Counted from the first letter of the stretch, positions 22,364 to 51,622 are shown. The stretch: DNA of 64,000 bases from Patescibacteria group bacterium (GCA_040388985.1 JAZKAU010000001.1:59359-123358), one strand, 5' to 3'. Notes: generated by a model from the letters alone, not told the origin. Translations and numbers: made by a program.

Positions 22364-22497
22364 GAGCTGAAATCTTGAAGCCGTCAAAAAACCCGATATG
22401 CAAGGCGGAGCAGAACGAGAGCTCGAGTCGTACTAGGGCGTACGGTGAGAGCTCAAGTGATAGCGACAACGCAGCAGATCGGGGAATTTTGGCAGCT

Positions 22498-24059: not shown

Positions 24060-24109
24060 TGAACAGCAGATATTAGCCTATAGCTAAAGGTGGCAGGGTA
24101 AACGTATAG

Positions 24110-24143
24110 CAAAAAGGCGTCCGCTATGCGGACGCCTTTTTGC
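24110..24143. terminator. Bidirectional intrinsic terminator between convergent genes
   Basis: caaaaaggcgtccgc-tatg-cggacgcctttttg. Confidence 0.65.
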
Positions 24144-24163
24144 TAAGACCTATATCCTGTTAC

Positions 24164-27115: not shown

Positions 27116-27255
27116 CCCGGTTATGACAACATGGCATTACTGGTATCCGTGCTTACTATGTACTTATCCAGGAGGAAGGAAGGTTCGAATTTCTCTATCT
27201 TTATTGCCATGCGTGAGTACCAGTATAGAGCACGATGCCATGTTGTCATACCGGG
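27116..27255. repeat. Long imperfect hairpin / IR-bounded element abutting the tdk start codon
   Basis: Arms cccggttatgacaacatggcat+tactggta (27116-27145) and taccagta..atgccatgttgtcataccggg (27218-27255); purine-rich ~70-nt loop. Confidence 0.5.
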
Positions 27256-27938: not shown

Positions 27939-27972
27939 TGATATTCATAATACCATAAAGTTGGATGTAATG

Positions 27973-28001
27973 CAAAAGCGCCCGCTCTGCGGGCGCTTTT
28001 G
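27973..28001. terminator. Intrinsic terminator (near-copy of the 27296 hairpin)
   Basis: caaaagcgcccgc-tct-gcgggcgcttttg. Confidence 0.65.
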
Positions 28002-28016
28002 CATCTTGAGCATCGT

Positions 28017-28693: not shown

Positions 28694-30313
28694 ATGGATA
28701 CTCGCTTCCAAACTCCTTCGACACTCATCTCTCTAGCTGGACTCGCGGTGAGCGCGACCGCCCTGCTCGCACCTATCAGTACGCTAGCCGCAGCTCCCTC
28801 CTGCACGCTTACAGCGACTCCTACGAGCACGGCTGTAGGCAGCCAGGTCAGTCTCAGCTGGACATCGACGGGCGCGAGCTACGCTTCGTGGATCCAGAAC
28901 AAGGCTGCAGCTATTCTCGGTCTTTCAGGTGACGGAGAAGGTTCGAAAGGATCAGAGACGTACATCCTCGGGAACACGACCGGTACGATCGCGCCGTCCC
29001 TCCAGGTCTCCCAGACAGGTCTAGACCTCGCTAGGATCTCTACAGTGAACCTGCCCTCATTCACTAACGCCATCGGCCTCGTCGTCCTAGGGAAGTACGC
29101 ATACGTTGTCGATGCTGGAGCCGGACACCAGTTGGACATACTCGATATATCGAAGCCTGCCGCGCCGGTGATCGTCGGCACGCTGAGCGATCTCACGAAT
29201 CTGAACGGCGCATTCTACCTCAAGATCGTAGGCAATTATGCCTACATCACGGCCACCGGAAGTAATCGGCTTACGATTGTCGACATTAGCAAGCCGACGG
29301 CGCCTAAGGTAGTGGGTTCCGTGAATGATGCCCGGTTGAACAGTCCGCGCGGACTGTTCATTTCCGGCAAGTATGCCTATGTAGTAGGGAATACGAACGC
29401 ATCTTTCAGCGTTATTGATATCTCGAATCCAGCATTGCCAAAAATTGTGAGCTTTATAACAGACGCAGTGAAACTTTCGGGAGGAGACGCGGTGGACGTA
29501 GACGGGCGCTACGCGTATGTCGCAGCAGGCGGAAGCAACTCGCTTACCGTGATCGATATACTCAATCCTGCGGCACCAGTGATCGTCGGAAGCATCACGG
29601 ATACTGCGCGCATGAGTAATCCTAAGGAATTGGTGGTGGAGGATGGCTATGCCTACGTCACCGCTCTCGGCAGCAATGATCTGATCATCGTTAACATCGC
29701 GAATCCGAAAGCGCCGGTCATAGTCAGCACCGTATCGGATGCGGTACAGCTCGGTGGCCCGAAGAATCTGGCGATTCGCGACGGCGTGGCCTACGTTACT
29801 GCCAACAGCGGCCGGAGTCTCACTATCGTGAATATAAGCGACCCGAAAGCGCCTGCTATCGTAACCACGCTCAGGGATACGACGAATCTGTCTGACCCGC
29901 GCGGCGTAGCGATCTCGGGAGGGAATATCTATGTAGCATCCGGAAGCAAGTTCAACGCATTCGCTACATCCGAGACGCTCGCTACGGCTCAGTGCTCGAC
30001 CACCATCACGGTATCGGGAGGCAGCCCTGCGCCTTCGGCTTCTGTCGACTCGGCGAAGACGGCTGCTGCAGGGAACGCGACTTCGGCTTCCATAGGCGGC
30101 TCGGCGAGCGGCGTGAGCGCGCTTACCGTGATCGTATATCCTTCTGATGACTATGATACGATCGTCTATCGCAATAACGCGGTTCCGGTGACTAGCGGAC
30201 ATTGGTCCCTCACGCTCCCCTTGAAGAAGGGAAGCTACATGATAGAAGTGCATGTCGCATCCACTACTCCTTCAGGAGGCACCTATCTCACGAGCAGCAC
30301 CACCTCTCTTTAG
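28694..30313 (+). CDS. Secreted LVIVD-repeat beta-propeller protein (paralog 1)
   Basis: Signal peptide; repeated YAYV..(A/G)..L.I.DIS.P..P..V units; 539 aa. Confidence 0.65.
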   Translation: MDTRFQTPSTLISLAGLAVSATALLAPISTLAAAPSCTLTATPTSTAVGSQVSLSWTSTGASYASWIQNKAAAILGLSGDGEGSKGSETYILGNTTGTIAPSLQVSQTGLDLARISTVNLPSFTNAIGLVVLGKYAYVVDAGAGHQLDILDISKPAAPVIVGTLSDLTNLNGAFYLKIVGNYAYITATGSNRLTIVDISKPTAPKVVGSVNDARLNSPRGLFISGKYAYVVGNTNASFSVIDISNPALPKIVSFITDAVKLSGGDAVDVDGRYAYVAAGGSNSLTVIDILNPAAPVIVGSITDTARMSNPKELVVEDGYAYVTALGSNDLIIVNIANPKAPVIVSTVSDAVQLGGPKNLAIRDGVAYVTANSGRSLTIVNISDPKAPAIVTTLRDTTNLSDPRGVAISGGNIYVASGSKFNAFATSETLATAQCSTTITVSGGSPAPSASVDSAKTAAAGNATSASIGGSASGVSALTVIVYPSDDYDTIVYRNNAVPVTSGHWSLTLPLKKGSYMIEVHVASTTPSGGTYLTSSTTSL

Positions 30314-33740: not shown

Positions 33741-33780
33741 GCCAAGTATTTTTTCATGCTCCAAACAATCGGAAGCGATG

Positions 33781-33810
33781 AAAAGACCGGCGCCAGGCGC
33801 CGGTCTTTTC
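33781..33810 (+). terminator. Perfect terminator hairpin between the riboswitch candidate and the nrdA start (possible expression platform)
   Basis: aaaagaccggcgcc-a-ggcgccggtcttttc followed by att. Confidence 0.7.
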
Positions 33811-33834
33811 ATTATCACTTCATCACCCTGCCTC

Positions 33835-36723
33835 ATGCCCATGCTCGAAATAAAGAAGCGGAACGGAACCGTCGTTCCCTTCGACGCAGAAAAGATATCT
33901 GCAGCCATCGCGAAGGCCTTCATCGCCTCCAGTGAGACCGTTTCGGAAGAGGGGCTTGGCGAGATGACCGCGGACATCGTCGGCACGCTTGAGGCCAGAT
34001 TCCCTGAATATCCGCCATCCGTCGAGCATGTACAGGACGCGGTGGAGTTGGCGCTCATGCGCGGCGGCTACCTCGACGTAGCCAAGCAGTACATCGTCTA
34101 CCGCTACGAGCGTTCGAAGGTCCGCGAGGAGAAGAAGCAGGAGACGCTCGAGAAGATCGAGGAGGAAGGCCTGATGCTCACCAACGCATCGGGAGGACAG
34201 GAACGTTTCAATGAGGCGAAGGTTCGCGAGTCGCTTGCGCGCGTGTCCGAGGGCATGCCGGACGTAAGCGAACTCGACATGGACGCCATACTCGCGCAGC
34301 TCCGGTTCGAGCTGTATGAGGGCATGACGACTGCCGAGGTGCGCAAGGCGCTCGTTGCCGTCGTACGCTCGATGATCGAGCGCGACCCCGCATACTCGCG
34401 CCTCGCGGCGCGCCTCCTGCTCGACGGCCTCTACGCCGAGGTCTTCGGTCCCGAATATGACGCGAAGAATCCTCTCGACTCGCATGAGCGGGTCTTCGTG
34501 CGCAATATGAAGCAGCTCGTTGAAGCCGGCGACCTCGACGAGAGGATGGGCGAGTTCGACCTCGCGAAGCTCGCGCGTGCGATGAAGGTAGAGAACGATA
34601 CGCTTTTCGAATACATGGGCCTTGAGATCATGAGCAGCCGTTACTGCATGGAGGATCCGAAGACGAAGGCTCAGCTCGAGACTCCGCAGATGCTCTGGAT
34701 GCGCATCGCTATGGGCCTTGCCATCGCTGAGAAGCCGGAAGACCGCGAGAAAGCTGCTCTTGAGTTCTATGACGTGCTCTCGAATTTCTACTACACGCCC
34801 GGCGGCCGCACCCTCTTCCAGGCCGGCGTGAAGAAGGCCCAGCTTTCTAACTGCTTCCTCAACGTCGTTCCTGACTCGCTCGACGGCATCTTCAAGTCCT
34901 TCAGCGATAATGCTCAGTATCTGAAGTGGTCGGGCGGCACGGGAACCAGCTGGAGCCGCGTGCGCGCTACCGGATCCTTCATCAAGGGCACGGGCGTCGG
35001 TTCCCAGGGCCCTATACCGTTCCTCAAGATTGCCAACGACGTGAACATCGCCATCAACCGCTCCGGCAAGCGACGTGGCGCAGGCTGCGTATACCTTGAG
35101 AGCTGGCACCTCGATATCGAGGACTTCCTCGAGCTGCGTAAGAATACGGGCGACGAACGGCGACGTACGCATGACATAAATACCGCTAACTGGATCCCAG
35201 ACCTGTTCATGAAGCGCGTGCGCGATGGTGGCGAGTGGACTCTCTTCTCTCCGAACGACGTGCCAGAGCTTACCGAGATATATGGCGCGGCCTTCGAGAA
35301 GAAATATCAGGAGTACGAGGCTGCAGCCGATCGGGGCGAGATAGAGATCTATAAGCGCATTCCGGCCGCTGATCTCTGGAAGAAGATGATCGGCATGCTG
35401 TTCGAGACCGGGCACCCGTGGATTACCTGGAAGGACCCGTCCAACATCCGCTCACCGCAGGATCATGCCGGCGTCGTGCATAACAGCAACCTCTGCACCG
35501 AGATAACGCTCAATACGAGCGACGACGAGACGGCTGTCTGTACGCTCGGCTCTCTAAACTTCGCGAAGTTCGTCACCCGTGACGAGAACGGGAAGCCTAC
35601 CTTCGACTGTGATTTGGTCGCTAAGGTCACGCGCGTGGCAGTGCGCATGCTCGATAACGTCATCGATCTCAATTACTACCCGACCGTCGACTCGTACAAC
35701 GGCAATTCCCGCCATCGCCCTATCGGGCTCGGCGTACGCGGCTACCACGACGCGCTCTATATGCTCGGACTCCAGTTCGACAGTCCTGAGGCGGTCGCCT
35801 TCGCCGACGAGAGCATGGAAGTCATGGCCTACTACACCATCCTCGCCTCAAGCGAGCTCGCGAAGGAGCGAGGTACCTATTCGACCTATAAGGGCTCGAA
35901 GTGGGACCGCGATATCTTCCCGCAGGACACCATCGACCTGCTTGAGGCTGAGCGCGGCGAGGAGATCAAGGTGAAGCGTGGCGGGAAGCTCGACTGGACG
36001 CCGGTCCGCGCTCATGTGAAGCAATACGGCATGCGCAACTCGAACACCATGGCTATCGCGCCTACCGCGTCTACGGCGAACCTGGTGGGTTGCATCCCGT
36101 GCGTCGAGCCTATCTACAAGAACATCTACGTGAAGAGCAACAAGGAAGGGGAGTTCGTCGTCGTGAACAAGTATCTTGTCGAAGACCTCAAGAAGGAAGG
36201 CCTCTGGAGCGCCGCGATGCTCAACCGCATCAAGTATGCTGACGGCAGCATCCAGGACATCATGGAGATTCCCGCGCATCTGCGCGAGAAGTACAAGGAG
36301 GTCTTCGAGATCGACGGCAAGTGGCTGGTGGAAGCTGCGGCACGGCGCGGGAAGTGGATAGACCAATCCCAGTCCCTTAACATCTTCTACAATGGCACCA
36401 GCGGCCGCGACCTCTCTGAAATATACTTCAAGGCGTGGGAAATGGGCCTCAAGACTACGTACTATCTGCGTACTCTTGGCGCTTCCCAAGTAGAGAAAGC
36501 TACCGTCTCAAGCAGCGAATACGGCTCGACTCACACCCGCACCAGCGGCGCTCCGCTCGCGCAGGCAGTGGCAGTGGCAGAAGCAGTCGTAGCGCGCGCA
36601 GAGATGCCGCAGCGGCCCGTTTTGAGCGTTCCAAGCGGCTTCTCGCCGGAGGAGTGGAAGGCAAAGCTGGCACGAGTCGCCGCGGGTGAAGAGTCGGGCA
36701 TCTGCGAATCCTGTGAGTCTTAG
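33835..36723 (+). CDS. nrdA: Ribonucleotide reductase class I alpha subunit
   Basis: ATP-cone N-terminus, catalytic NLCTEI...CTLGSLN, C-terminal Cys pair; start moved downstream of the terminator hairpin that the track ORF runs through. Confidence 0.9.
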   Translation: MPMLEIKKRNGTVVPFDAEKISAAIAKAFIASSETVSEEGLGEMTADIVGTLEARFPEYPPSVEHVQDAVELALMRGGYLDVAKQYIVYRYERSKVREEKKQETLEKIEEEGLMLTNASGGQERFNEAKVRESLARVSEGMPDVSELDMDAILAQLRFELYEGMTTAEVRKALVAVVRSMIERDPAYSRLAARLLLDGLYAEVFGPEYDAKNPLDSHERVFVRNMKQLVEAGDLDERMGEFDLAKLARAMKVENDTLFEYMGLEIMSSRYCMEDPKTKAQLETPQMLWMRIAMGLAIAEKPEDREKAALEFYDVLSNFYYTPGGRTLFQAGVKKAQLSNCFLNVVPDSLDGIFKSFSDNAQYLKWSGGTGTSWSRVRATGSFIKGTGVGSQGPIPFLKIANDVNIAINRSGKRRGAGCVYLESWHLDIEDFLELRKNTGDERRRTHDINTANWIPDLFMKRVRDGGEWTLFSPNDVPELTEIYGAAFEKKYQEYEAAADRGEIEIYKRIPAADLWKKMIGMLFETGHPWITWKDPSNIRSPQDHAGVVHNSNLCTEITLNTSDDETAVCTLGSLNFAKFVTRDENGKPTFDCDLVAKVTRVAVRMLDNVIDLNYYPTVDSYNGNSRHRPIGLGVRGYHDALYMLGLQFDSPEAVAFADESMEVMAYYTILASSELAKERGTYSTYKGSKWDRDIFPQDTIDLLEAERGEEIKVKRGGKLDWTPVRAHVKQYGMRNSNTMAIAPTASTANLVGCIPCVEPIYKNIYVKSNKEGEFVVVNKYLVEDLKKEGLWSAAMLNRIKYADGSIQDIMEIPAHLREKYKEVFEIDGKWLVEAAARRGKWIDQSQSLNIFYNGTSGRDLSEIYFKAWEMGLKTTYYLRTLGASQVEKATVSSSEYGSTHTRTSGAPLAQAVAVAEAVVARAEMPQRPVLSVPSGFSPEEWKAKLARVAAGEESGICESCES

Positions 36724-36742
36724 AACGGGTTAAAATCCCTTT

Positions 36743-36822
36743 CTGCGTCGTTATGGGTCCCACCGGATTCTCTCACCGTAGGTCCACTACGACTCGAGAA
36801 TCCTCCTCCCATGCCTCGCATA
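36743..36822 (+). repeat. Structured intergenic element, copy 2 of 3 (nrdA-nrdB spacer)
   Basis: ctgcgtcgttatgggtccc + stem ggattctc/gagaatcc around loop tcaccgtaggtcc... + tcccatgcctcgcat. Confidence 0.55.
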
Positions 36823-36911
36823 AAGGAATTTTCCCTCCGTTCTAGCTGAAACAATCAGAGTGCTTCTGACTTACGAAGAAAAGTCGAATTATAGAAATAA
36901 CCAATCCATAT

Positions 36912-37946
36912 ATGCCCATCAACAAAGGAGCTGCGCCCGTGAATATCAATAATCGCAAGGTCATCAATGGCGGCGACGCAGACGTCATGCAGCTCTATCC
37001 CATGAAGCATCACTTCGCGTGGGAGGCATATATGGCAGGGAACGCCAACCACTGGCTTCCGACCGAGATAAGCATGCAGCGCGACATCGAGCAGTGGAAG
37101 AGCACCACGGTGCTAACCAGTGATGAGCGCAAGGCCTTTGAGACCGTTCTAGGCTTCTTTACGACTGCGGACTCCATAGCGGCCAATAACGTCGTACTCG
37201 CCCTCTACAAGCACATCACGAGCCCTGAGTGCCGCATGTATCTGCTCCGCCAGGGATACGAGGAAGCCATCCACACGCACGCCTATCAATACATCGTAGA
37301 GTCCCTCGGCATGGACGAGAGCAAGATATTCAACATGTATAGGGAAGTCGAAAGCATCTACAACAAGGACAACATGATCCTGTCGCTCAACGAGGGCATC
37401 TTCGCCGACGACTTCAAGACCGGAACCTTCGAGAACGACCAGAAATTCCTCGAGAACCTCTGCGTCTTCTCCCTCATTCTCGAAGGCATCTTCTTCTACT
37501 CGTCCTTTGCCGTCATGTTCGGCTTCCAGCGTCAGAATAAGCTCACCGGAAGCGCTGAGCAGATCCAGTACATCATGCGCGACGAGTCCCAGCACCTCAA
37601 TTTCGGCGTGAACATGATAAACGCCATCAAGGAAGAGCAGCCGGAGCTCTGGACGCCTGAATTCGAGCAACGCATCATCGATCTCGTGAAGCGTGCTGTC
37701 GTGCTCGAATACACTTTTGCAGCTGAAGTCTTCCCGCGCGGCATCTTCGGTATGAATGCAGCCGGCTTCAAGCAGTACATCGAGCATATCGCCGATCGCC
37801 GGCTTGCAGCCGTGGGTCTGCCCGCTCAGTACAACGTCGCCAATCCGTTCACCTGGATGAGCGAAGCCGTAGACCTCAACAAGGAGAAGAACTTCTTCGA
37901 GACCCGCGTCACCGAGTACAAGACGGGCGGAACTCTGGATTGGTAG
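36912..37946 (+). CDS. nrdB: Ribonucleotide reductase class I beta subunit
   Basis: Ferritin-like diiron ligands (EEAIHTHAY..., ILEGIFFYSSFA..., RDESQHL). Confidence 0.9.
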   Translation: MPINKGAAPVNINNRKVINGGDADVMQLYPMKHHFAWEAYMAGNANHWLPTEISMQRDIEQWKSTTVLTSDERKAFETVLGFFTTADSIAANNVVLALYKHITSPECRMYLLRQGYEEAIHTHAYQYIVESLGMDESKIFNMYREVESIYNKDNMILSLNEGIFADDFKTGTFENDQKFLENLCVFSLILEGIFFYSSFAVMFGFQRQNKLTGSAEQIQYIMRDESQHLNFGVNMINAIKEEQPELWTPEFEQRIIDLVKRAVVLEYTFAAEVFPRGIFGMNAAGFKQYIEHIADRRLAAVGLPAQYNVANPFTWMSEAVDLNKEKNFFETRVTEYKTGGTLDW

Positions 37947-37976: not shown

Positions 37977-38011
37977 AAAAGGGCGCTGGCTCGGAAGCCA
38001 GCGCCCTTTTG
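37977..38011. terminator. Bidirectional terminator hairpin
   Basis: aaaagggcgctggc-tcggaa-gccagcgcccttttg. Confidence 0.7.
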
Positions 38012-41484: not shown

Positions 41485-43104
41485 ATGAACCTGATCTCTG
41501 CTTCCGTGCGGCGTGGCCTCGTTCACGCGCTCTCGATCGGCACAATTACGACCGCTCTTATATTTCTTGTATCACCAGCCCTTGCGCTCGCGAGCCCACC
41601 TACCTGCACCCTAACCGCAACGCCTTCGACGGTAGACGTAGGGGACCACGTTACCCTGAACTGGGCTTCGACGGGCGCTACGTACGGCACGTGGCTGCAG
41701 GATGCTGCCGCAGCCGTACTCGGACTCTCCGGAGATGCTCTTCTTGCAAGCGGTTCGGAGGATTTTCTTGTCGGAAGCACTACTGGCACGATCACCCCGA
41801 CGCTACAGGTCGCACAGACCGCTAAGACCTTGACCCAGGTGGCCTCGACATCGCTTCCTGCGTTCACGAACGCGATCGGTCTAGAGATCGTCGGAAATTA
41901 TGCCTATGTGGTGGACGCGGGTGCGAGCCATCAATTAGATGTCATCAGCATCGCTAATCCGACTGCGCCTGCGGTAGTCGGAACGACCAGCAGCCTGACG
42001 AACCTGAACGGTGCCTTCTACATCAAGATTTCCGGAAACTACGCCTTTGTCACCGCGACTGGAAGCGATCGCCTCACCGTAGTGGATATATCGAACCCGA
42101 CTGCGCCTGCGGTCGTCGCGTCGCTAAGCGATTCAAGGTTCTCCGCACCGCGCGGCCTGTTCTTGGTCGGAAACTATGCCTATGTAGTCGGGAATAGCCA
42201 AGGGAGTCTCAGCATCGTGGATATCTCGAACCCGCTGGCTCCGGTGATCAAGGGTTCGCTCACTGACTCGACCATACTCAGCGGGGGAGATTCTCTCTTT
42301 GTCGACGGCCGGTATGCCTACGTCACGGCAGGGCAGAGCAGTACGCTTGCCGTTATCGACATAGCTAGCTCGACGGCTCCCGCCATCGTAGGAACGCTGG
42401 TTGACCCGATACGGATGAATAATCCGAAAGAGCTCCTGGTCTCGGGTAACTACGCGTATGTAACGGCCTTAGCAAGCAATGCGCTCGTAATAGTCGATAT
42501 CTCGAGCTCGACCGCGCCTACGATAGTCAGTGCGCTATCAGATACCACCCGGCTCGCAGGGCCGAAGAATCTGACGATATTCGATGGCATTGCATACATC
42601 GCTGCCAATAGCGGTAGGAGTCTGGTAATGGCGGATATTACCGATCCGCATGCCCCATTCATCATTGACTCGAAGAGAGACACGACAAACCTGAGCGATC
42701 CTCGCGGAGTAGCTATAAGTGGCGGCTATATATTCATAGCGTCTGGGAATATATTCGACGTGTTCACGACGGTCGAAACGTCGCTTGCCAGCGATTGCTC
42801 CGCCACTATTACGGTAAGCGGCGGGACGCAGCAGCCTACCGCTACGGTCGACAGCGTCCTGAACAGCGCTGGAAACGCTACGATAAGCGGCACGGCTACC
42901 GGCCCGACCTCGCTCACCGTCATCATCTATCCATCCTTCGATAGTGATACGGTCGTCTATCGCGATGATCAGGTACCGGTGAGCGGCGGCCACTGGTCAG
43001 TGACCGCGCCTCTTCAATCCGGGAGCTATACCGTTGAAGTCCACAGCTCAAGCCAAAGCCCTTCAGCAGGAACGTATCTGACCAGCAGTACGTTCTCGGT
43101 GTAG
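41485..43104 (+). CDS. Secreted LVIVD-repeat beta-propeller protein (paralog 2)
   Basis: Same 539-aa length and repeat architecture as 28694..30313, collinear identity throughout. Confidence 0.65.
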   Translation: MNLISASVRRGLVHALSIGTITTALIFLVSPALALASPPTCTLTATPSTVDVGDHVTLNWASTGATYGTWLQDAAAAVLGLSGDALLASGSEDFLVGSTTGTITPTLQVAQTAKTLTQVASTSLPAFTNAIGLEIVGNYAYVVDAGASHQLDVISIANPTAPAVVGTTSSLTNLNGAFYIKISGNYAFVTATGSDRLTVVDISNPTAPAVVASLSDSRFSAPRGLFLVGNYAYVVGNSQGSLSIVDISNPLAPVIKGSLTDSTILSGGDSLFVDGRYAYVTAGQSSTLAVIDIASSTAPAIVGTLVDPIRMNNPKELLVSGNYAYVTALASNALVIVDISSSTAPTIVSALSDTTRLAGPKNLTIFDGIAYIAANSGRSLVMADITDPHAPFIIDSKRDTTNLSDPRGVAISGGYIFIASGNIFDVFTTVETSLASDCSATITVSGGTQQPTATVDSVLNSAGNATISGTATGPTSLTVIIYPSFDSDTVVYRDDQVPVSGGHWSVTAPLQSGSYTVEVHSSSQSPSAGTYLTSSTFSV

Positions 43105-43186: not shown

Positions 43187-43504
43187 TCTTTGCTTGTTCG
43201 CACTGGCTAATGACTTTAGAACGATAGACTGGGTAAAGGAATACCCGATTCCGGAGATAACCCTGAAGCAGATCTCTACCTGCGGGCAGGATCCTTCCAC
43301 ACCGGGCAGGCAGCTTGCTGTGCAACTACACTTGGATCTTAATAGTAGCTTCGCTCCTTTAAAATCTCGGCGTACACCTTGCGGCTTCTCCTCGAAGACT
43401 CAGAAAATGCTCACAAGGTCTTCGAATCCTGCACGTAAGCGCCCCACGCTTACTCTGGGAAACCAATAAGAAAGCGCCCAAGAGGCGCTTTCTTATTGGT
43501 TTCC

Positions 43505-43530
43505 CTGGCTGTGTGGGACAACGTTGGAAC
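43505..43530 (+). repeat. 26-bp perfect direct repeat, copy 1 (ctggctgtgtgggacaacgttggaac)
   Basis: Identical to 44105-44130, exactly 600 bp apart; both copies lie just after terminator hairpins. Confidence 0.8.
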
Positions 43531-43986: not shown

Positions 43987-44104
43987 TAACCGTCTGAAGA
44001 ATCCGCCTGGAGAAATCCACCGCTTCTCCAGGCGGCTTCTTTTTATGCAAATAGTTCCAAAGTACTATTCTGCTTCTCCGTATGGGCTAGATTCTAAAAC
44101 ATTG

Positions 44105-44130
44105 CTGGCTGTGTGGGACAACGTTGGAAC
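44105..44130 (+). repeat. 26-bp perfect direct repeat, copy 2
   Basis: Identical to 43505-43530. Confidence 0.8.
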
Positions 44131-44134
44131 CAAT

Positions 44135-44530
44135 TTAACTCTCCACCACTACCTTTAGTTTCTGCAATATAGTTTCTATGTTGGTTTCGGAAAATCGCTC
44201 GCTCACGGCACCTTCCTTGACCCATACCCGATAGTCTAACTCACACTTATCCGGTTCAAATGGTTTGAAAATATATACAACGTGATGGTTGTCATCCTTC
44301 TTAGTCATTTCAAACATAAATCCATCTTCAAATGCAGTTATTTCAAATTCGCACCAACCACCACTTTGGTCCTGGCTTCTATATATAGTTCCAAGTTTTA
44401 CTGGATTTTCACTCGCCTCTTCTTTCACCACACCATCTACCCATCTTGGAGTGTTATCGGGATTGGTAGTGAAGTTAAAAACTTCGAAGGCAGGCTTATT
44501 TATAATAATGGTCTTCTTCACACTATTCAT
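44135..44530 (-). CDS. SRPBCC (START/Bet v1-like) family protein
   Basis: 131 aa, ...KPAFEVFNFTTNPDNTPRWVDGV... typical polyketide-cyclase/AHSA1-like pattern. Confidence 0.45.
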   Translation of the reverse strand: MNSVKKTIIINKPAFEVFNFTTNPDNTPRWVDGVVKEEASENPVKLGTIYRSQDQSGGWCEFEITAFEDGFMFEMTKKDDNHHVVYIFKPFEPDKCELDYRVWVKEGAVSERFSETNIETILQKLKVVVES

Positions 44531-44600
44531 GTTCCAAAGTATACCAACTAATGGCTGGGTGAGTTTAGAACTCTTAATTGGAATGAGATTGAGCTAGAAT

Positions 44601-44909
44601 TTATTTCTTTGACTGTCCCCACTGCCATCGAGGTTTTTCTCCTCTCTTGTAGCAGATAAAAACAAGTAGGGCGGTCAGTGCAATGATGGGTAATGCGAAT
44701 GTCAGGAAATTGCCTCCCGAATCAGGATTTCCTGGAATATCTTTTTCTCTCGAGATTACGGAGGTCATGATGAGTGCAACATACGCGAGAAGAACGCACC
44801 ATCCTTGCCATTTTACTGGAATCCAACCCCAGCCATAAAGTTTGGCCTTAAACCAATAGCCTTGTGGATTGTCTCTGAGATATGCAATGTACATTGTCAG
44901 AAAACTCAT
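44601..44909 (-). CDS. Small membrane protein
   Basis: 102 aa, two TM helices, Trp-rich. Confidence 0.35.
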   Translation of the reverse strand: MSFLTMYIAYLRDNPQGYWFKAKLYGWGWIPVKWQGWCVLLAYVALIMTSVISREKDIPGNPDSGGNFLTFALPIIALTALLVFICYKRGEKPRWQWGQSKK

Positions 44910-45149
44910 ACAAATCAGTATAGCTTAAATTGGTTAACTCCGAGGGTACGCGAAGCTTGCTCTCGTTCGTCTCCACAGAAAAGAAAATGCCCCTCAGAAG
45001 GGGCGCTTTCTTATCGTTCCAGTTCCCCGAACATCACGTTAATAACATACCGCTCACATTTAATAGGGAATACATGAGTGGGGTGGCTCAACAGCTGTGT
45101 TAGATTAGGCTTATGGAAAGGTTTTCTGAAGTATAATGAGCAAACCCAC

Positions 45150-45755
45150 ATGAACTCTGTCTCAACATTCATCTTTGATTGTTTCGGTGTGATCTGTCAC
45201 CCTGCCGTACACGGCTGGTATGAAGAAAATAGATTAAGGCAAGGATATTCTGATGAACATTTACCGGCAATTTTAGAACAGTTTGACCTCGGAAAGCTAT
45301 CTGAAGATGAACTTGTTGATTACTTCCTGACATACGAGGGAATTAATTCCACAAAAGAAAAGATTCGTGAGGAGATAGATAGCCACTTGGGTTTAGATAC
45401 TGAATTAGCTTCGACTATTAAGAAGCTAAAAGAAAGTGGTTTCAAGACAGCTCTACTATCAAATGGTAACGAGTCTTTCTTTGAGAGAAAGGTCTATCAA
45501 GAATATCCTCAATTCAAGGATCTATTTGATGAAATTGTCATTTCTTCTTCAGTCGGAATGGTAAAGCCTAACGCTGATATCTATCTGCACACTCTCCAAA
45601 TAGTAGGGTCAAGACCTGAAGAATCATTATTTATTGATGACCGTAAGGTAAATGTAGACGCCGCAACTATGCTCGGTATGAATGGCTATGTATATACGAC
45701 AAGTTCTGCTTTCTCTGACTATTTGAAAGATGTGGGTGTTAGTCTTGGGCGGTAG
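45150..45755 (+). CDS. HAD-superfamily hydrolase
   Basis: Motif I FIFDCFGVI (DxxG), motif IV FIDDRKVNVDAA; start set at MNSVSTF. Confidence 0.6.
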   Translation: MNSVSTFIFDCFGVICHPAVHGWYEENRLRQGYSDEHLPAILEQFDLGKLSEDELVDYFLTYEGINSTKEKIREEIDSHLGLDTELASTIKKLKESGFKTALLSNGNESFFERKVYQEYPQFKDLFDEIVISSSVGMVKPNADIYLHTLQIVGSRPEESLFIDDRKVNVDAATMLGMNGYVYTTSSAFSDYLKDVGVSLGR

Positions 45756-45909
45756 GCCCAGAAGTTATATTCGCCTCAGTCTCTGATGCAAAGCAGCCCT
45801 ATGTTATAAGGCTGTTTTGGTTTGCTCCCCCTCGTGGACAAGTTCAGAACTGCGAATTGGGTTGGTATTAAGAGCGAACTTCAGTTCAGTGGCATTCTCA
45901 GCTTCTTTC

Positions 45910-46473
45910 CTACTGCCATAAGCTCTCAGTAAATTCGGGTAGCTTTTCAGCCAAAACATCCATTTCCCGTATGCCTTGGCGCATAATGGTTGGGGTAATT
46001 TTGAGCTTACGGAACTTAATCATCCCGTCCTCCTTCTTTGTCTTTGTATCTACTCTTACATAGCCCTCTGTATCTAGAGTTTGCCATTTAGCGTGGGCTA
46101 TCTTGTTTCTCAGAGTACTAAGCGTTTCAAGCTGTTTTCTGATTGATGCTAGTTGGCTGCTCTTTAAGACCTTCTTCTTTTGAGCCCAATTAACCATCGG
46201 GAAGGCAAGGTTATAGAAAAGCTCTATTTTTGCCGATACTTCCAAATCCTTAATGATGGTATAGCCCTCGTAATGGGAACGGTCATTGATAAGGTTAGCT
46301 ATTTCTACGTCCAAGCTATGCTCCAAATTGCTAAAGCTAATCAGGAAAGAACCTATGTGGATTGCGTACTTTTCCTCTTGCGCTTCCGTTAGTTCATCGC
46401 CAGCACCGTCATATTGGTCTAGCTCCTCATACTTAACTTCAAGAGCTTTTGGTTGCTTGGCTTTAGCTTTCAT
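45910..46473 (-). CDS. HEPN-like protein (RNxxxH motif), last gene of the five-gene operon
   Basis: ...ETLSTLRNKIAHAKW... Rx4-6H HEPN signature; overlaps the upstream Zn-ribbon ORF by 11 nt. Confidence 0.45.
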   Translation of the reverse strand: MKAKAKQPKALEVKYEELDQYDGAGDELTEAQEEKYAIHIGSFLISFSNLEHSLDVEIANLINDRSHYEGYTIIKDLEVSAKIELFYNLAFPMVNWAQKKKVLKSSQLASIRKQLETLSTLRNKIAHAKWQTLDTEGYVRVDTKTKKEDGMIKFRKLKITPTIMRQGIREMDVLAEKLPEFTESLWQ

Positions 46474-46765
46474 TGCTTTTTACAACCTTTTTGGATACCG
46501 CATCAACAAACAACCTAAAAGCAGGTCTTTTCTCCTTCTCGTAAACAACCTTAACCCCAAGGGTATGACCCTTTGGACAGGAAAGCTCCTTCTTGGAAAT
46601 TGCTACGCTTGGCTCATTTATTCGGTCTACGTACATTCGGCGCAGGTTGCCAGCCCCGTCCTTCTGGTAAGAGCAAATAACGGAACTGCACTTCCTGCAC
46701 GAAATTCTCAAAAGCCGTGAATAACCTCCGCGTGCCTTCTTGTATTTGTCGTTCTTAAGCTTCAT
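46463..46765 (-). CDS. Small zinc-ribbon protein
   Basis: CRKCSSVIC ... SCPKGH (CxxC...CxxxH), 100 aa, basic. Confidence 0.4.
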   Translation of the reverse strand: MKLKNDKYKKARGGYSRLLRISCRKCSSVICSYQKDGAGNLRRMYVDRINEPSVAISKKELSCPKGHTLGVKVVYEKEKRPAFRLFVDAVSKKVVKSNES

Positions 46766-46773
46766 ATCAAAGA

Positions 46774-47154
46774 TTATCTTACGATTTGAGTATCAAACCA
46801 TTGCTCCTGAAAGTGAATAGCTGACATAATTTCATCATCAGTCATTTTAATTCCCTCAGGCACAACTACAAGCTTATCGTCGTCATTATCTTTACGATGT
46901 GCAATAGCTATACAGACACCTTTGGCACGGTTAAGAGGTTCGGCTACTCCTAAGTAATAGGCATCTAGGTCTTCACCATCAGGAGCTTTTATTCCTTCTA
47001 TAAATCCATAGTTGGCTTTATACACAAAGCCGTGTTTAGGGTGCTTAGAACCAAGAGTGCGGTCCATAACAACCTCAACCTCCTTTCCTAAGTATTCTTT
47101 TGCAAGTTCAAAGGATTTAGAGGTTTCCATATAAAAAGTTTCGTACCTGCTCAA
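46774..47154 (-). CDS. Truncated family-I inorganic pyrophosphatase-like protein
   Basis: DRTLGSKHPKHGFVYKANYGFIEGI (compare DRF..YPxNYGFIPxT), DGEDLDAYYL (compare DGDPLDVLV), DDKLVVVPEG (compare DxKLxAVP); lacks the N-terminal ~50 aa of canonical PPase. Confidence 0.5.
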   Translation of the reverse strand: MSRYETFYMETSKSFELAKEYLGKEVEVVMDRTLGSKHPKHGFVYKANYGFIEGIKAPDGEDLDAYYLGVAEPLNRAKGVCIAIAHRKDNDDDKLVVVPEGIKMTDDEIMSAIHFQEQWFDTQIVR

Positions 47155-47662
47155 TAGGTTTTATCTGCATATAGGTCTTGTGATCATCTTCAGCAGATAG
47201 TTCAGCCCTTGTAAGGGAATATCCTTCAGGGATAAAAACAGCGTCCCAGCCATAGCCACCTTCACCAGCAGGTTTCTCAGGAACCGTTCCATCCATACCT
47301 CCTTCAAAATAGCTCTCGGTCTGTCCATCAAAGTAGCCAAAGACACAACGTGCCTTTGCACCCCGTTCCTTACCGTCTAGAAGCCGACACAGGCCTTCAA
47401 GCGAAAGCTCTTCAAGAAACCACTTAATAAACGTGCCAGGCAGTCGTCCCAAAGCCGTAAATTCAAGTGCAACATCCTCAACGAGAACTGGACGCTCCAC
47501 TTGAGCATATGCTTGGCGAAGCTTGTGTTTTACAACCTCTTTCAAATCAAGGGACTGAACCTCGTCCAAATCTACCTTTACGTGTTCTATGGGATGCCCA
47601 AGTAGCTGACCGAGATAGTCAGCTTTCTTCTGGTTGCCAGTGATGAATACAACCTCTTTCAT
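47117..47662 (-). CDS. Ham1/RdgB-like non-canonical NTP pyrophosphatase (ITPase family)
   Basis: VFITGNQKKADYL (compare ATGNxGKxxE), PAGEGGYGWDAVFIPEG (compare GxGGFGYDPIFxP). Confidence 0.65.
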   Translation of the reverse strand: MKEVVFITGNQKKADYLGQLLGHPIEHVKVDLDEVQSLDLKEVVKHKLRQAYAQVERPVLVEDVALEFTALGRLPGTFIKWFLEELSLEGLCRLLDGKERGAKARCVFGYFDGQTESYFEGGMDGTVPEKPAGEGGYGWDAVFIPEGYSLTRAELSAEDDHKTYMQIKPIEQVRNFLYGNL

Positions 47663-47664
47663 AA

Positions 47665-48642
47665 TTACTTGTTGCCTACTTCCTCAAATAGGTCTGTGTC
47701 TATCTTTTCTCCCTTTAAGTACTGCTGAATGCACCAATCGCGCATCTTCACGCGCCAAGCCCAAAAGTCGGGATTGCTAGTAGGGTCTTCTTCAGAACCC
47801 TTATCCTTACCACTAGCCCATATGGTCTTAAGTACTAGAAAATCGTCAGAGTACTCACTTAACTTTGGTAAGTCATATGCAATAGCTACACTATCCAGTT
47901 CTGCTATATAACGTGCAATCTGTTCATTACTAAAGCGATAGCGAACCTTGCCTTCAGGCCACATCCTTCCAAAGAAAACATTTGTAAGTCCGTCATATCC
48001 AACGGGACCGAAGCTTGCAAGCTCAAAGTCAATAACGCCATTAGGCAGAATGTTATACGCGTTCAGGTCTGCCTGTATGTAGCCCCACGGTAATGAAAGG
48101 GAACGTTCTGAAGCACGTTCAATTGCCTCCATAAATGGCTCCCTCATCTCTTCAGAAGGTGGGTTATTTCTGATTACATTTGCAAGGGCAATCATTTGAG
48201 CCATTGCTTCCTTGTTCTGAGGAACAAAATTCTTTGGGTTGAACTGCGCCTCGCAGTATTTCTTTACCGCCTCAGTAAATGCATCAAATGTGGCATCACT
48301 TACTACGCCATTTTCTTTGGTTTCCTCAGTGAATTGGTCTGCGAAATTTCTATCACCAATGCTGCTTTCAATGAAGTAGCTTTCTCCTGTCGGAAGTACG
48401 CCTTCTGCTAGAACTTCAGGGACTGGAAAGCCGCGTTCGTGAAGGTCTCGCGTGATATTAAGCTCACCAGCAATCTCTGCTGCACTGTGTGTACGAAGGT
48501 AAGCTGTCCTATCTGTGTTTACGTAAATATCACCACCCATAAGGCGGTCTTTCAGATAGTTGTACGCTATGCCATTCACAGTTATAGCTTCTTTGCCTTT
48601 TTCCATAGTGGGTTCTGTTTGGAGCTTTTCCATTACATTCAT
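47665..48642 (-). CDS. APH/choline-kinase-like phosphotransferase (protein-kinase-like fold)
   Basis: GYIQADLNAYNILPNGVIDFELASFG (Brenner/catalytic-loop + DFE-like motifs). Confidence 0.55.
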   Translation of the reverse strand: MNVMEKLQTEPTMEKGKEAITVNGIAYNYLKDRLMGGDIYVNTDRTAYLRTHSAAEIAGELNITRDLHERGFPVPEVLAEGVLPTGESYFIESSIGDRNFADQFTEETKENGVVSDATFDAFTEAVKKYCEAQFNPKNFVPQNKEAMAQMIALANVIRNNPPSEEMREPFMEAIERASERSLSLPWGYIQADLNAYNILPNGVIDFELASFGPVGYDGLTNVFFGRMWPEGKVRYRFSNEQIARYIAELDSVAIAYDLPKLSEYSDDFLVLKTIWASGKDKGSEEDPTSNPDFWAWRVKMRDWCIQQYLKGEKIDTDLFEEVGNK

Positions 48643-48653
48643 ATTAGCTTAAA

Positions 48654-49928
48654 TTGCTAGGCATTGTAAACTATTGTAAAGCGATGGAAGACGACACATT
48701 CAACTACTTTAACGTAGATATAAATCTCCTTGCCCTGCACGTATTGCTTGAAGGGGCTTTTAGAGGACAAAGCATTTTTACCCTTGAGCGGTTCCTGAAG
48801 GGCAACTACTGGAAGATTGAAGAAATTGAGGAAGATATAAGAGACACCAACGACTACAGTTCTGTTGAAGACCTTGTAATGCATCAGGTCATAGGAATGG
48901 TTGAAGCTCTTGAACTAGGCACAGTAAAGCGAGTAAGCGTGGCTAATCTCTATGGGCTTACAGAGCAAGTTGCAAGGGAAGCTGTAGAAACTAAGGACGG
49001 TACTGAAGACGACGTTGCTTATTACAGTTCTCTCATCAGTGAGCTATACGACCTGAGGAAAAAAGAAGAGGAACAATTTAGAGAGCGACTTGATGCTGGA
49101 TTGCCTTACTCAGAGGCACGTACCAATAGGGCTGACTTTACCAAAGACGACTTTGGAAGGCATATACAAATTATTTCTGCTATATCAACTCCATTCATAG
49201 AGCTAGAGATAGATTTTGACGAACTTAAGACCCAAGAAGCCGACAAATTAATTCATGACTATATACATTCATTTTCGCAGGATGATTATATTGAAAAGAA
49301 GCCATTCTATAGGCAGAAGCGCTTCTACTTTTCAAAGCAGCTTGAGAACTTCTTTGAGTACATCCAGCGTTTTCCTGAAATAGATGGGTATGTAAACATC
49401 CCTTTCTCTGCGCTTAGTGAGCAAGGATTTGAAGTGGTAAAAGTAATGACCTACTTGGAAAGAGAAGCGCGCTTAAAGGTTAGGAACTGGGACGATATTG
49501 AGCTATGGAATGTTAAGTTTCATAAAACTCCAATTACCCTTGCTTCTTTATTGGGACAGGAAACCAAGACCGAGATTAAAGCGATAGATAAGAGCGAGAT
49601 TAAGCTGAACTTAAGTTTTTCTCCAGAGACAGCAATGATGAGCCTGACAGACCAGACGGGCACAGAATATAAAGTTAGGGTTCAAGGGCAAGTTCAAAAG
49701 GAAGTATTACGTGTGATATTCAAAAACCCCAAAGATACGTATACCGAGTGGAGTTTATACGACATTAGCGAGTTGCTTGGTGGACAGGACGTAAACGAGA
49801 CAGCCGTTAAGAACGCCATCTATCAATTCAATAAGAAGACCAAACTTCACCTCCCACAAGTAGAAAATCTCTTTGAGCTGACCAAACATTCAGCACGACT
49901 CAATCCAAAATACGTAAGTCCAGACTAA
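48654..49928 (+). CDS. Hypothetical protein, possible C-terminal winged-helix
   Basis: 424-aa ORF divergent from the kinase operon; no catalytic motif recognised. Confidence 0.35.
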   Translation: MLGIVNYCKAMEDDTFNYFNVDINLLALHVLLEGAFRGQSIFTLERFLKGNYWKIEEIEEDIRDTNDYSSVEDLVMHQVIGMVEALELGTVKRVSVANLYGLTEQVAREAVETKDGTEDDVAYYSSLISELYDLRKKEEEQFRERLDAGLPYSEARTNRADFTKDDFGRHIQIISAISTPFIELEIDFDELKTQEADKLIHDYIHSFSQDDYIEKKPFYRQKRFYFSKQLENFFEYIQRFPEIDGYVNIPFSALSEQGFEVVKVMTYLEREARLKVRNWDDIELWNVKFHKTPITLASLLGQETKTEIKAIDKSEIKLNLSFSPETAMMSLTDQTGTEYKVRVQGQVQKEVLRVIFKNPKDTYTEWSLYDISELLGGQDVNETAVKNAIYQFNKKTKLHLPQVENLFELTKHSARLNPKYVSPD

Positions 49929-49984
49929 GCAAACTTAAGTAAGGCAACAAATAACCTGTAGGGACAACCTACGGGTTGTTTCTT

Positions 49985-50149
49985 ATGCAGGAAACTATCA
50001 GCCCAGAAAAGCCAAAAGAAAGCTTCCAAATACAGAAGCTCTCACTGGAAGAGCGAGACCGCTTAGTTAGCTTCTTTGCGCTGCTTCTCAAGGTTGATAA
50101 GCGAGTAAATCCTGCACTTTACCAGATTAAGAAAACACAAAATGATTGA
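49985..50149 (+). CDS. Small protein (54 aa) translationally coupled to the Rep gene
   Basis: MQETISPEKPKESFQIQKLSLEERDRLVSFFALLLKVDKRVNPALYQIKKTQND; its stop overlaps the rep start (ATGATTGA). Confidence 0.3.
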   Translation: MQETISPEKPKESFQIQKLSLEERDRLVSFFALLLKVDKRVNPALYQIKKTQND

Positions 50150-51302
50150 TACCGTCTGTCTTCTCATACCGAAAGACAGAATTACCGTAGTTGATATGTC
50201 TCAGCGCGGAGTACCTTCTTGGAACCTGCACTCAAGGACAGACCAATACGATAAATACGTAAAGAACCCTTCAAAACGGGACTTGGATAGTGGGCAGTAC
50301 TTCCCGCGTCTAACTGGCTACAAGCGCAAAAGCTTTGCCCAAGAAGCAAATGTACGGATAGAGTTTTCAGCTCCAAAGCTGCTCTTCCTGAACAATCTTG
50401 ACGAGCTTACGGATAAGGACTTTCCACGGCTCATTGAGACACTTCAAGACCGACTTATGACTATGGGAATTGTTGTATCAAAACCAGTGTTGGCAAATGC
50501 TTCTGTAAGCTCAGTGCACTTCTCAAAGAATATCTTGCTTCAAGACGGTTATACGTCTAACCACCTCATTTCTGAGATGAACAAGATAGACCTTAGGAAG
50601 AGCTTTGATTTTGCACGGACTAGGTACATCAATGACGGTCAAAGCTTGTACGCTCATACCACCGCACATCAGCTAGTTATCTACGACAAAGTAGCTGACT
50701 TGGGCAAGGACAAGAAACGAGCGATAGACAAAGAGCAGACACCTTACCAGCGGAACCTGTTTGGCGAGTTGCTGAAGGATAAAGACGTTAAAGAGATTAT
50801 CCGCTTTGAGGTACGTCTGAACCATAAGCAGAAGCTCAATAAGCTCTTGGAGCAGTTAGGGTACGACAAGAACCCGACCTTCAAGCAGGTATTCCGAAGT
50901 GATGTGAGCAAAGCAGTAGTTATGGACTACTGGAAGAAGTTGATTAAGGAGCGGAACCTAGGACTGTTTTCTATCGCCATTAGCATTAAAGACATATTGA
51001 GGACGTTGTTTATGGCAGACAAAACCCTGAAGCCGAAACAGGCAATCTATCTGCTGGGTCTCTTTATGCTTGCACGTGATGAGAACGGAATGCGACAGCT
51101 AAGAAGTATCGTCTCAAAAAGGTCTCACGATAGAACGTGGTATCGGATAGCAAAGGATATGCAGAACGCCAGTGCACTTATTACTAAGAACAAGCTTAGG
51201 GACTGGGTCTCACAGCTTGATAAAGGTTTGGACGATTATCAGCCGTATAGGGTATCAAGAGATGAAGAAAACAAATCAGACAAAGGCAAGAAAGCTTCTT
51301 AA
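50142..51302 (+). CDS. Replication initiation protein, Rep_trans-like
   Basis: 386 aa; HQLVIYDK... and IIRFEVRL... segments resemble Rep_trans RIE/YDK motifs; element context. Confidence 0.45.
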   Translation: MIDTVCLLIPKDRITVVDMSQRGVPSWNLHSRTDQYDKYVKNPSKRDLDSGQYFPRLTGYKRKSFAQEANVRIEFSAPKLLFLNNLDELTDKDFPRLIETLQDRLMTMGIVVSKPVLANASVSSVHFSKNILLQDGYTSNHLISEMNKIDLRKSFDFARTRYINDGQSLYAHTTAHQLVIYDKVADLGKDKKRAIDKEQTPYQRNLFGELLKDKDVKEIIRFEVRLNHKQKLNKLLEQLGYDKNPTFKQVFRSDVSKAVVMDYWKKLIKERNLGLFSIAISIKDILRTLFMADKTLKPKQAIYLLGLFMLARDENGMRQLRSIVSKRSHDRTWYRIAKDMQNASALITKNKLRDWVSQLDKGLDDYQPYRVSRDEENKSDKGKKAS

Positions 51303-51439
51303 ACGGAACTTCTTTATGGAAGCTCTCGTAGTGGAGTTGGATGCTGAAAAGAAGTGGAAGAGGGCAAAGAAAGCACAGAAGAAAGGACGGACGCTGTCCA
51401 CTTAGTAGGTTTGTTATGTAAAGAATTGTAAAGTAATAT

Positions 51440-51619
51440 ATGACTATGCAAAAAGAGTTTTACACGGCGCAGGAGCTAGCCGATAAGCTTCAAGTTAATG
51501 TTATGACTATCTACCGCTATATTGGCGCAGGTAAGCTTAAGGCGCATAAAATTGGAAAGTCGTTCCGTATCCCAAGGGCTACTTTTGAGAAGTTCCTTGA
51601 AGCCACTAAAACTAAGTAG
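51440..51619 (+). CDS. xis: Excisionase-family HTH DNA-binding protein (59 aa)
   Basis: YTAQELADKLQVNVMTIYRYIGAGKLKAHKIGKSFRIPRATFEKFLE matches the excisionase-family DNA-binding domain pattern; not in the track (<60 aa). Confidence 0.6.
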   Translation: MTMQKEFYTAQELADKLQVNVMTIYRYIGAGKLKAHKIGKSFRIPRATFEKFLEATKTK

Positions 51620-51622
51620 CTT

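Follow-up and report, generated by a model that had tools for sequence, protein, structure and literature searches.

The ERIC (IRU) elements of enterobacteria and the bcr1 elements of the Bacillus cereus group are imperfect palindromes of ~127-155 bp found in transcribed intergenic regions; they are conserved across genera, patchy in copy number and carry compensatory substitutions that suggest selection for an RNA fold, and ERIC is found in either orientation. So are Correia elements, which have a TA duplication and conserved terminal inverted repeats (TIRs) of 26 bp. Phage T7-type RNase III sites are intercistronic irregular hairpins with a conserved internal loop and variable stems, and their cleavage leaves a protective 3′ hairpin on the upstream mRNA. 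Patescibacteria (Candidate Phyla Radiation, CPR) have small genomes (~1 Mb or less) in which non-coding DNA is very scarce, and to our knowledge almost nothing is known of their post-transcriptional control or small mobile DNA. Here we analyze a hairpin in the spacer between the ribonucleotide reductase genes nrdA and nrdB of a Patescibacteria group bacterium (GCA_040388985.1, JAZKAU010000001.1:59359-123358; this stretch of 64,000 nucleotides is referred to as the window). The hairpin, copy 2 below, belongs to a real, structurally constrained, strand-specific and dispersed palindromic repeat family of Patescibacteria, which in its behavior is closest to the REP/REPIN, Correia/NEMIS and ERIC/bcr1 elements.

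REPs, for which an action as RNA is presumed, are located less than 20 bp behind upstream open reading frames (ORFs) and in many cases provide the stop codon; they lie mostly between unidirectional or convergent genes, and their copy number is lineage-variable (PMC3733652). The placement of the Patescibacteria family is the same: out of 30 copies for which orientation and spacing were counted (with ORF calls corrected by hand), 28 have the coding-strand orientation, sense to the upstream gene, and 25 of these 28 have their start at -7 to +17 nt relative to the upstream stop codon, mostly 0-17 nt past it. REP and REPIN, which are thought to be mobilized by REP-associated tyrosine transposases (RAYTs), are built of 20-40 bp units with a terminal GTAG or CGTC tag, a REPIN being two inverted REPs. 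In contrast, the unit described here forms one rod of 105-135 nt with four helices and conserved, asymmetric internal loops, its arms are not palindromic units and its stems vary among the copies of one genome. Neither GTAG nor CGTC is conserved as a tag at the two ends of the 26-copy alignment, and no Y1 transposase or RAYT was detected among 18 proteins of the 64-kb window scanned against Pfam.

A report on Correia elements (PMC2649163) describes a co-transcribed hairpin that binds RNase III and is cleaved or protected, and a presence that differs between strains. The Correia/NEMIS elements (CREE) of Neisseria are likewise hairpin repeats of ~100-150 bp near genes with variable presence; the Patescibacteria family differs from them in that its termini are the least conserved part, its orientation is 28:2 in favor of sense and a TA duplication is inseparable from stop-codon pairing. 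With ERIC and bcr1 there is no sequence similarity and the host phylum is different, the tight stop spacing and conserved pyrimidine loops being particular to the Patescibacteria family. An RNase III-type geometry, with about two or more turns of double-stranded RNA, is present (the predicted rods have 39-45 enclosing pairs with internal loops and are intercistronic), and cleavage by RNase III is putative; however, T7 sites are ~60 nt long, are confined to one phage and do not form a repeat family with gains and losses. Integron attC sites also lie directly behind an ORF in a fixed orientation, have conserved ends or extrahelical bases and variable stems, and are recognized as a folded single strand, but here the ends vary among copies and do not fit RYYYAAC/GTTRRRY core sites, a cassette array and an integrase are lacking, and the neighbors are housekeeping operons. 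We recognize a new family akin to the known co-transcribed palindromic intergenic repeats, marked by a conserved interior, freely covarying stems and tight stop-codon spacing in minimal genomes.

The initial annotation placed the element at positions 36743-36822. The sequences it described are located there, in the order CTGCGTCGTTATGGGTCCC-ACC-GGATTCTC-TCAC-CGTAG-GTCCA-CTACG-ACTC-GAGAATCC-TCC-TCCCATGCCTCGCAT, but this is only the core: minimum free energy (MFE) folds and the covariance model give a full rod hairpin of 126 nt at 36720-36845 (plus strand). The core scores at 36730-36835 (plus strand) with 91.5 bits under covariance model R1 and 89.7 bits under the broader model R2. The conserved 5′ box (CUGCGUCGUUAUGGGUCCC / CTGCGTCGTTATGGGTCCC; 36743-36761, plus), which was defined by box search, alignment and a 26-copy pairing analysis, provides helix 1b (CUGC) and helix 2 (GU-AUGGG) with their 5′ arms and also contains a 3x3 internal loop of pyrimidines and an unpaired UCCC. 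The conserved 3′ box (TCCCATGCCTCGCAT / UCCCAUGCCUCGCAU; 36807-36821, plus) supplies the 3′ arms of helices 2 and 1b. Folding places between the boxes the variable stem, helix 3, in which GGAUUCUC (36765-36772, plus) pairs perfectly with GAGAAUCC (36796-36803, plus). Within helix 3, the segment UCACCGUAGGUCC had been taken for a loop; fold and alignment show that it contains a fourth conserved helix, the apical hairpin CGUAG-GUCCA-CUACG (36777-36791, plus; arms 36777-36781 and 36787-36791), located between the two sides of a pyrimidine internal loop, CUCAC and ACUC. The MFE of copy 2 folded as RNA is -37.6 kcal/mol (z = -6.3), a value equaled by none of 200 shuffles. The same sequence is also present in an independent Logan assembly, L001.

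The nrdA gene (large subunit; 33778-36723, plus; Pfam ATP-cone, Ribonuc_red_lgN and Ribonuc_red_lgC) ends with a TAG at 36721-36723 that, according to the ORF and the fold, is paired in the base of the outer stem. A second TAG, at 36843-36845, lies at the 3′ foot of the hairpin, and the start codon of nrdB (small subunit; 36912-37946, plus; Pfam Ribonuc_red_sm) is 66 nt past this foot.

Two copies had been implied for the window; the covariance model R1 locates five. Copy 1 occupies the spacer between atpE (3058-3288, plus) and atpF (3430-3879, plus; both genes assigned by Pfam), with a hairpin at 3280-3417 and a core at 3294-3401 (plus; R1 100.9 bits), and the atpE stop codon TAA lies inside the base of its stem. 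Its MFE is -34.4 kcal/mol (z = -7.9), again equaled by none of 200 shuffles. When up to 3 mismatches were allowed, the 5′ box CTGCGTCGTTATGGGTCCC had a single further match in the window, at 3307-3325 with 2 mismatches (0.01 matches are expected from shuffles), and the 3′ box TCCCATGCCTCGCAT is repeated without change at 3373-3387. The flanking boxes are thus common to copies 1 and 2, as had been noted; the central stem, also correctly described, is unlike in the two copies yet fully complementary in both (GGAUUCUC/GAGAAUCC in copy 2 vs. GAUGAUUUUC/GAAAAUCAUC in copy 1). Helix 4 adds a compensatory change, CGUAG/CUACG in copy 2 being CGUAC/GUACG in copy 1.

The three other copies are weaker. 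One diverged copy is located in the atpB-atpE spacer, antisense to the atp genes (hairpin 2928-3047, core 2935-3040, minus), and was retrieved on the minus strand only (R1 54.3 bits, R2 80.6 bits; supported by the fold). Another, at a convergent junction (hairpin 22375-22501, core 22384-22490, minus; R1 46.4 bits, R2 74.7 bits), starts 7 nt past the stop of a VanY-like gene (22498-23409, minus), and six consecutive U follow its helix 1. The last, partly decayed (hairpin 53943-54071, core 53952-54062, plus; R1 65.1 bits, R2 82.2 bits; fold z ~0) and first found by repeat finding at ~53959, starts 5 nt past the stop of an HPF/S30AE gene (53575-53946; Pfam) that is convergent with fmt (54058-54933, minus); it forms the rod only when folded with wider flanks. 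Rods with 39-45 enclosing pairs are predicted for four of the five window copies. Since the reverse strands of the strong copies score 12-13 bits under R1, vs. 90-100 bits for the forward strands, the sequence is strand-specific.

The covariance model retrieved more than 25 further copies from other Patescibacteria contigs, and there are 32 matches in 1.08 Mb of Patescibacteria loci (designated below by L numbers). A scan with the two-box pattern GTTATGGGTCCC-N35-65-TCCCATGCC, in which one genome per species was considered, gave 23 loci. Eleven of them are in records labeled Parcu-, Kaiser-, Wolfe- or Saccharibacteria, Paceibacterota or Minisyncoccia and have the same architecture with different stems. 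The other 12 are proteobacterial (Bradyrhizobium, Paraburkholderia) and were discarded: they represent an unrelated repeat, GGTTATGGGTCCCCGCCTTCGCGGGGACGAC, with only the first box in common, by chance. The taxon labels are the submitters' own, and L002 (labeled Parcubacteria) and L006 (labeled Saccharibacteria) have gene content (pyrG, metK) in common and their copies are similar; we therefore make no claim that the family crosses phyla. Viral contigs gave no matches to the two-box pattern. A search of the window against Rfam 15 at the gathering threshold yielded only a tRNA and a group I intron, and with E values up to 10 the two strong copies gave only mir-4861 and ar14 at E = 3.5, or nothing. 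No earlier description was found in the literature on Patescibacteria, Parcubacteria, Saccharibacteria or CPR. The defining motifs of attC sites, boxA, K-turns, SECIS elements and self-cleaving ribozymes are not in the alignment, and these candidates were rejected.

As can be seen from the alignments, a copy consists of a 105-nt core with four helices that is extended to a rod hairpin of 120-140 nt. RNAalifold applied to 13 copies returned 26 pairs in the four helices, 15 of them with compensatory double changes. When 26 copies were considered, 89.5% of the four-helix cells were standard pairs (25-46% when partners were slid by 1-3 columns), changes on both sides were seen in 20 of the 26 pairs (150 such cells), and none of 500 shuffles matched any of the observed pairing measures. 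Double changes affect all 7 pairs of helix 3 across the family, and the top pair of helix 4 covaries as well (CG in 16 copies, UA in 6, GC in 4). The atpE-atpF copies of the window, L008, L009, L014 and L022 all keep the fold, with AtpF proteins 53-60% and AtpA proteins 77-79% identical; they have in common a helix 3 core, GAUUUUC/GAAAAUC, whose closing pair is G-C, A-U, U-A, C-G or U.G.

The best-conserved parts are CUGC-N3-GUU, the unpaired UCCC, CUCAC-CGUAY-loop-RUACG-NCUC and GCCUYGCAU, and all three internal loops between the helices are pyrimidine-rich on the element strand. Most copies folded with their flanks form the rod, with outermost stems that differ; L007 and the 53952-54062 copy are exceptions. 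The initial annotation had named non-compensatory stem changes in further copies as the outcome that would speak against it: most of the pairing is kept, though decay is uncompensated in the 53952-54062 copy and in L023 and L004, where helix 3 is mostly lost.

These data strongly support its central claim that the similarity is more than chance and that selection acts on the structure. Chance similarity, an assembly artefact or a small protein gene would be a negligible explanation. A gene could be imagined, because the box ATGGGTCCC reads Met-Gly-Pro and short ORFs starting with MGP begin in the 5′ box of L002 and L023 according to the ORF lists. However, box spacing differs by 1-3 nt among copies and does not keep the frame, the reading in copy 1 would end after 11 codons, and the AUG itself takes part in covariation (to GCG), on which grounds an MGP-type ORF was rejected. 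The shuffle expectation of 0.01 box matches argues against chance, and more than 30 copies from independent assemblies argue against an artefact.

The genes upstream of the copies include atpB, atpE, atpD, nrdA, nrdB, efp, secY, ftsX, rplL, the HPF/S30AE gene, VanY-like and FtsW-like genes and others. The upstream stop codon is usually paired in the foot of the hairpin, and in a few copies (L008 at 6678, L004 and the window copy at 22384) the last codons of the gene are inside the stem. Between the 3′ hairpin foot and the start codon of a following gene on the same strand there are usually 9-25 nt. The two exceptions to the sense orientation are the window copy at 2935-3040, antisense in the atp operon, and a copy of L002 beside the metK start. 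In the window itself, three copies are on the plus and two on the minus strand; all but one of the five have the sense orientation relative to the upstream gene. That orientation follows the neighboring gene speaks somewhat for RNA as the acting form. Most hairpins with an upstream stop codon (~17 of 26) have TA...TA flanks or a repeated stop triplet (TAG...TAG in copy 2); TA is its own complement, and the stop codon is base-paired within the stem. Since a paired stop codon explains such flanks equally well, a target-site duplication cannot be distinguished from them.

The element could also be a long-stem variant of the bidirectional intrinsic terminators of this genome, acting as a terminator or attenuator (A-tract, hairpin, U-tract). 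A U-run of at least 4 begins 2-3 nt past helix 1 in 13 of 26 copies and is mirrored by a 5′ A-run; these runs are longest at convergent gene ends (U6 at 22384, U5 in L026), with erosion to U1-3 in the atpE-atpF copies. The element is also the sole hairpin at the hpf/fmt and vanY junctions. Yet the U-tract is missing in half of the copies, a consensus promoter/terminator scan around copy 2 called nothing at the element despite the U4 after helix 1, conserved internal loops are unnecessary for termination, and copies within essential operons must be read through. The genome also has canonical, short bidirectional terminator-like hairpins with an A-tract, a GC-rich perfect stem and a U-tract, detected as inverted repeats at 24107-24145, 27970-28004, 37977-38010 (right behind nrdB) and 43457-43505, and thus uses an ordinary intrinsic-terminator architecture beside the long repeat hairpins. 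We therefore consider the terminator explanation very unlikely.

We have compared the nrd and atp loci of the window with those of relatives. The set of NrdB relatives comprised 80 loci (79-94% identity, 933 kb), in which 6 copies were found with R1 and 12 with R2. The density of copies is 5 per 64 kb in the window, 3 in 8 kb in L008 and 12 per 933 kb in the NrdB-relative loci. In the loci with the nearest NrdA relatives (L041, 80%; L027, 79%; L030, 78%) nrdA adjoins nrdB with a spacer of ~35-50 nt without the element, and in L025, L033/L034 and L042, where the two genes are adjacent with short spacers, it is also missing. The flanks align across the gap: AGC TAA TAGCTGG...CTGACTTAT in L025 corresponds to TCT TAG, followed by the element (AACGGG...CCGTTC) and by TAGCTGAAAC...CTGACTTAC, in the window. 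A copy is located right behind nrdA in L026 and L032 (NrdA 72-73%) and right behind nrdB in five loci.

The atp loci show a similar pattern. In the five nearest AtpB relatives (80-84%; AtpA 81-85%) the atpE-atpF spacers are 18-40 nt long, and the covariance model found no copy in 116 kb from these relatives. The atpB-atpE spacer has a sense copy in L008 and L022, none in L009 and L014 and an inverted copy in the window; the L009 spacer keeps TAGAAGC, which is the first 7 nt of the L008/L022 copy. Just past the atpE stop, the element-free L110 and L107 have loop-less perfect palindromes (CGCAGCTGCG at ~11112-11121 and GAGCGCTC at ~11052-11059, respectively), and the flank in L110 resembles the outer stem of the window copy (ACGCAG|CTGCGCTTAC vs. 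CCGCCG...CGACGCTTAG). Judging from their sequence, these palindromes and the flank likeness may be footprints left by deletion of the hairpin interior. If copies were inherited vertically, orthologous copies would be expected in nearer relatives; empty sites were found instead, which points to gain and loss rather than to a fixed regulatory site. Thus, the family is gained and lost between related genomes and is patchy and dispensable. The view of the element as a regulator specific to nrdA/nrdB is not supported, as relatives that keep the gene pair lack it: of the functional RNA structure proposed initially, selection on the fold stands and the tie to nrdA/nrdB does not, the family being dispersed and missing from the nearest relatives.

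Another conserved motif was observed just 5′ of the nrdB start, ~120 nt upstream of nrdB in L026, L028, L029, L032, L035-L039, L043 and L044. In these relatives it reads ...CAGGTTGC..GACAATG.., a small hairpin with an ACUACGA-like loop, and then GAATTATCGGTAAC..CTCGT ATG; the window form (~36866-36905) is shorter, CTTCTGACTTACGAAG...TCGAATTATAGAAATAAC. The motif has no Rfam match and may be a leader or translation signal for nrdB.

The recurrence of the element at the same genes bears on a different possibility, that of a dedicated host regulatory RNA, i.e., a signal between cistrons that is inherited vertically and to which a particular protein or RNase of Patescibacteria binds. Such a signal would set operon ratios (nrdA:nrdB, atpB:atpE:atpF, rplL vs. 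downstream genes) in the manner of T7 RNase III sites or chloroplast intercistronic elements. Five genomes have a copy behind atpE, three have copies on both sides of atpE, three have one behind nrdA and five have one behind nrdB; the ends of secY, hpf, efp and rplL are likewise among the sites that recur across lineages. Along with the orientation bias, the strong sequence conservation of the internal loops next to covarying stems would fit a dedicated RNA, as would the helix 3 core GAUUUUC/GAAAAUC that the window has in common with the L008 clade at atpE-atpF (AtpF ~55% identical); the deletion-footprint look of the L110 and L107 palindromes would imply ancestral presence. On the other hand, the nearest relatives are without the element at the nrd and atp loci, in the 116 kb and in ~50 kb of flanks, one copy is antisense to its operon and one is beside a gene start, several copies are decaying and copy density varies more than 5-fold between lineages. 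A dedicated regulatory RNA is accordingly, in our view, an unlikely explanation.

Patchiness with clean gain and loss can also be read as a sign of a selfish element acting at the DNA level. A single-stranded DNA hairpin would then be recognized by an HUH/Y1 transposase (IS200/IS605, RAYT) or, as for attC, by a tyrosine recombinase; insertion by this enzyme would take place on the 3′ side of short targets (e.g., stop codons) or within hairpin loops that already exist, and effects on RNA would be incidental. A conserved hairpin is formed by the last atpB codons and the spacer just downstream, with the atpB stop in its loop (2722-2784 in the window; also in L105-L110, L008 and L022). In L008 and L022 the element is lodged inside the loop of this hairpin, and in the window and L105-L110 the hairpin has no element there, so that, from sequence comparison, the arrangement in L008 and L022 looks like an insertion. 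An outer-stem motif, ACAUGUC...CACGU, is common to three unrelated sites (atpE-atpF in L008, ftsX-pyrG in L006 and beside metK in L002), and the combination of conserved unpaired bases with variable stems recalls attC or IS200-end logic. Wobble cells, too, show no strand signal: there are 16 G.U vs. 21 A.C, and, with no RNA-strand asymmetry, the fold may be one of single-stranded DNA. Nevertheless, orientation tracks the neighboring gene rather than one direction in the window, no near-identical copies mark recent transposition and attC core sites are absent. No transposase was seen among the 18 scanned window proteins, the sole recombinase (52093-52677) belonging to the tRNA-linked island described below. 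We rate a DNA-level selfish element as distinctly unlikely.

With somewhat better than even confidence, we hold that the best explanation as a whole is a dispersed structured repeat that is co-transcribed and forms a generic 3′ hairpin, with no specificity for nrd. Co-transcription and the role of a generic 3′ hairpin are probable. The element would be transcribed within the mRNA of the upstream gene, where a very stable 3′ hairpin could block 3′-to-5′ exonucleases, be a substrate for an RNase III-like double-strand-specific RNase or cause partial termination. Segments of operon mRNA would thereby be separated, a role also ascribed to REP, ERIC and Correia elements in other bacteria. The rod fold would hold the upstream stop codon and the downstream start codon close to each other, which would make insertion tolerable within operons such as nrdAB and atp. 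The conserved loops could be a recognition surface for a putative partner, which may be a protein that processes or binds the element or else its copying machinery.

Several observations weigh against this explanation. We infer co-transcription, as well as effects on decay, processing or termination, from position alone, and the wobble counts given above do not favor RNA. No target-site duplication or transposase could be established for the family. In the 26-copy alignment the termini and outer stems are the least conserved part and the interior boxes the most conserved, and copies within one genome are not near-identical, unlike those of classical mobile repeats. Around the nrdB loci, 7 of 12 copies are directly behind nrdA or nrdB, which may mean a locus-linked function. 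Finally, a generic hairpin role leaves the strong sequence conservation of the internal loops and apical helix unexplained. It is possible, and we propose it tentatively, that the pyrimidine-rich loops and the CGUAY/RUACG helix are a docking site of a Patescibacteria-specific factor. In an RNA version, the element may be a phylum-wide "punctuation mark" at the leading edge of the terminating ribosome that controls processing, decay or re-initiation between cistrons; in a DNA version, it may be mobile DNA of a new, structure-recognized kind that homes to stop codons or hairpin loops by means of a putative, undescribed enzyme.

Whichever of these holds, a fold kept through complete turnover of the stems, a fixed distance from stop codons and an occupancy of up to ~1% of a genome region indicate a strong force, be it a use to the host or an efficient selfish mechanism. 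The hairpin of copy 2 should not be read as an nrd-specific regulator. The covariance model provides a handle for annotation of copies that otherwise yield spurious small ORFs (e.g., those with MGP starts) and unexplained long spacers, and the gain/loss pattern supplies natural comparisons of loci with and without the element.

A second palindromic repeat is present in the window at 2783-2897 and 27117-27255. It has conserved TIRs (ATGCCCRGTATGACARC ... GYTGTCATACYGGGNAT) with an unrelated interior, the classic pattern of a miniature inverted-repeat transposable element (MITE), and one of its copies shares the atpB-atpE spacer with the inverted member of the hairpin family. The conserved TIRs of this repeat make clear the contrast with the variable termini of the hairpin family, which has the multiple copies and the filled and empty orthologous sites of MITEs but not their conserved TIRs.

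A group I intron (Rfam RF00028, 70 bits, 52903-53142) splits a tRNA gene at 52852-53163 (minus strand). The acceptor, D and T arms can be read in the flanks, and the 5′ exon ends with CUGUCAA, which resembles an anticodon loop; the gene was not called by ARAGORN. This tRNA marks the end of a low-GC block (44000-53500, GC 0.42 vs. ~0.55 elsewhere) that is probably an integrated island. The block contains genes for a serine recombinase/resolvase (52093-52677) and for HAD, Ham1 and APH-like proteins, and several of its ORFs have no Pfam match. Two paralogous 539-aa genes (LVIVD / choice-of-anchor-like) at 28694-30313 and 41485-43104, 12.8 kb apart, have internal repeats of ~138 nt, and their common stretches are 60-75% identical.

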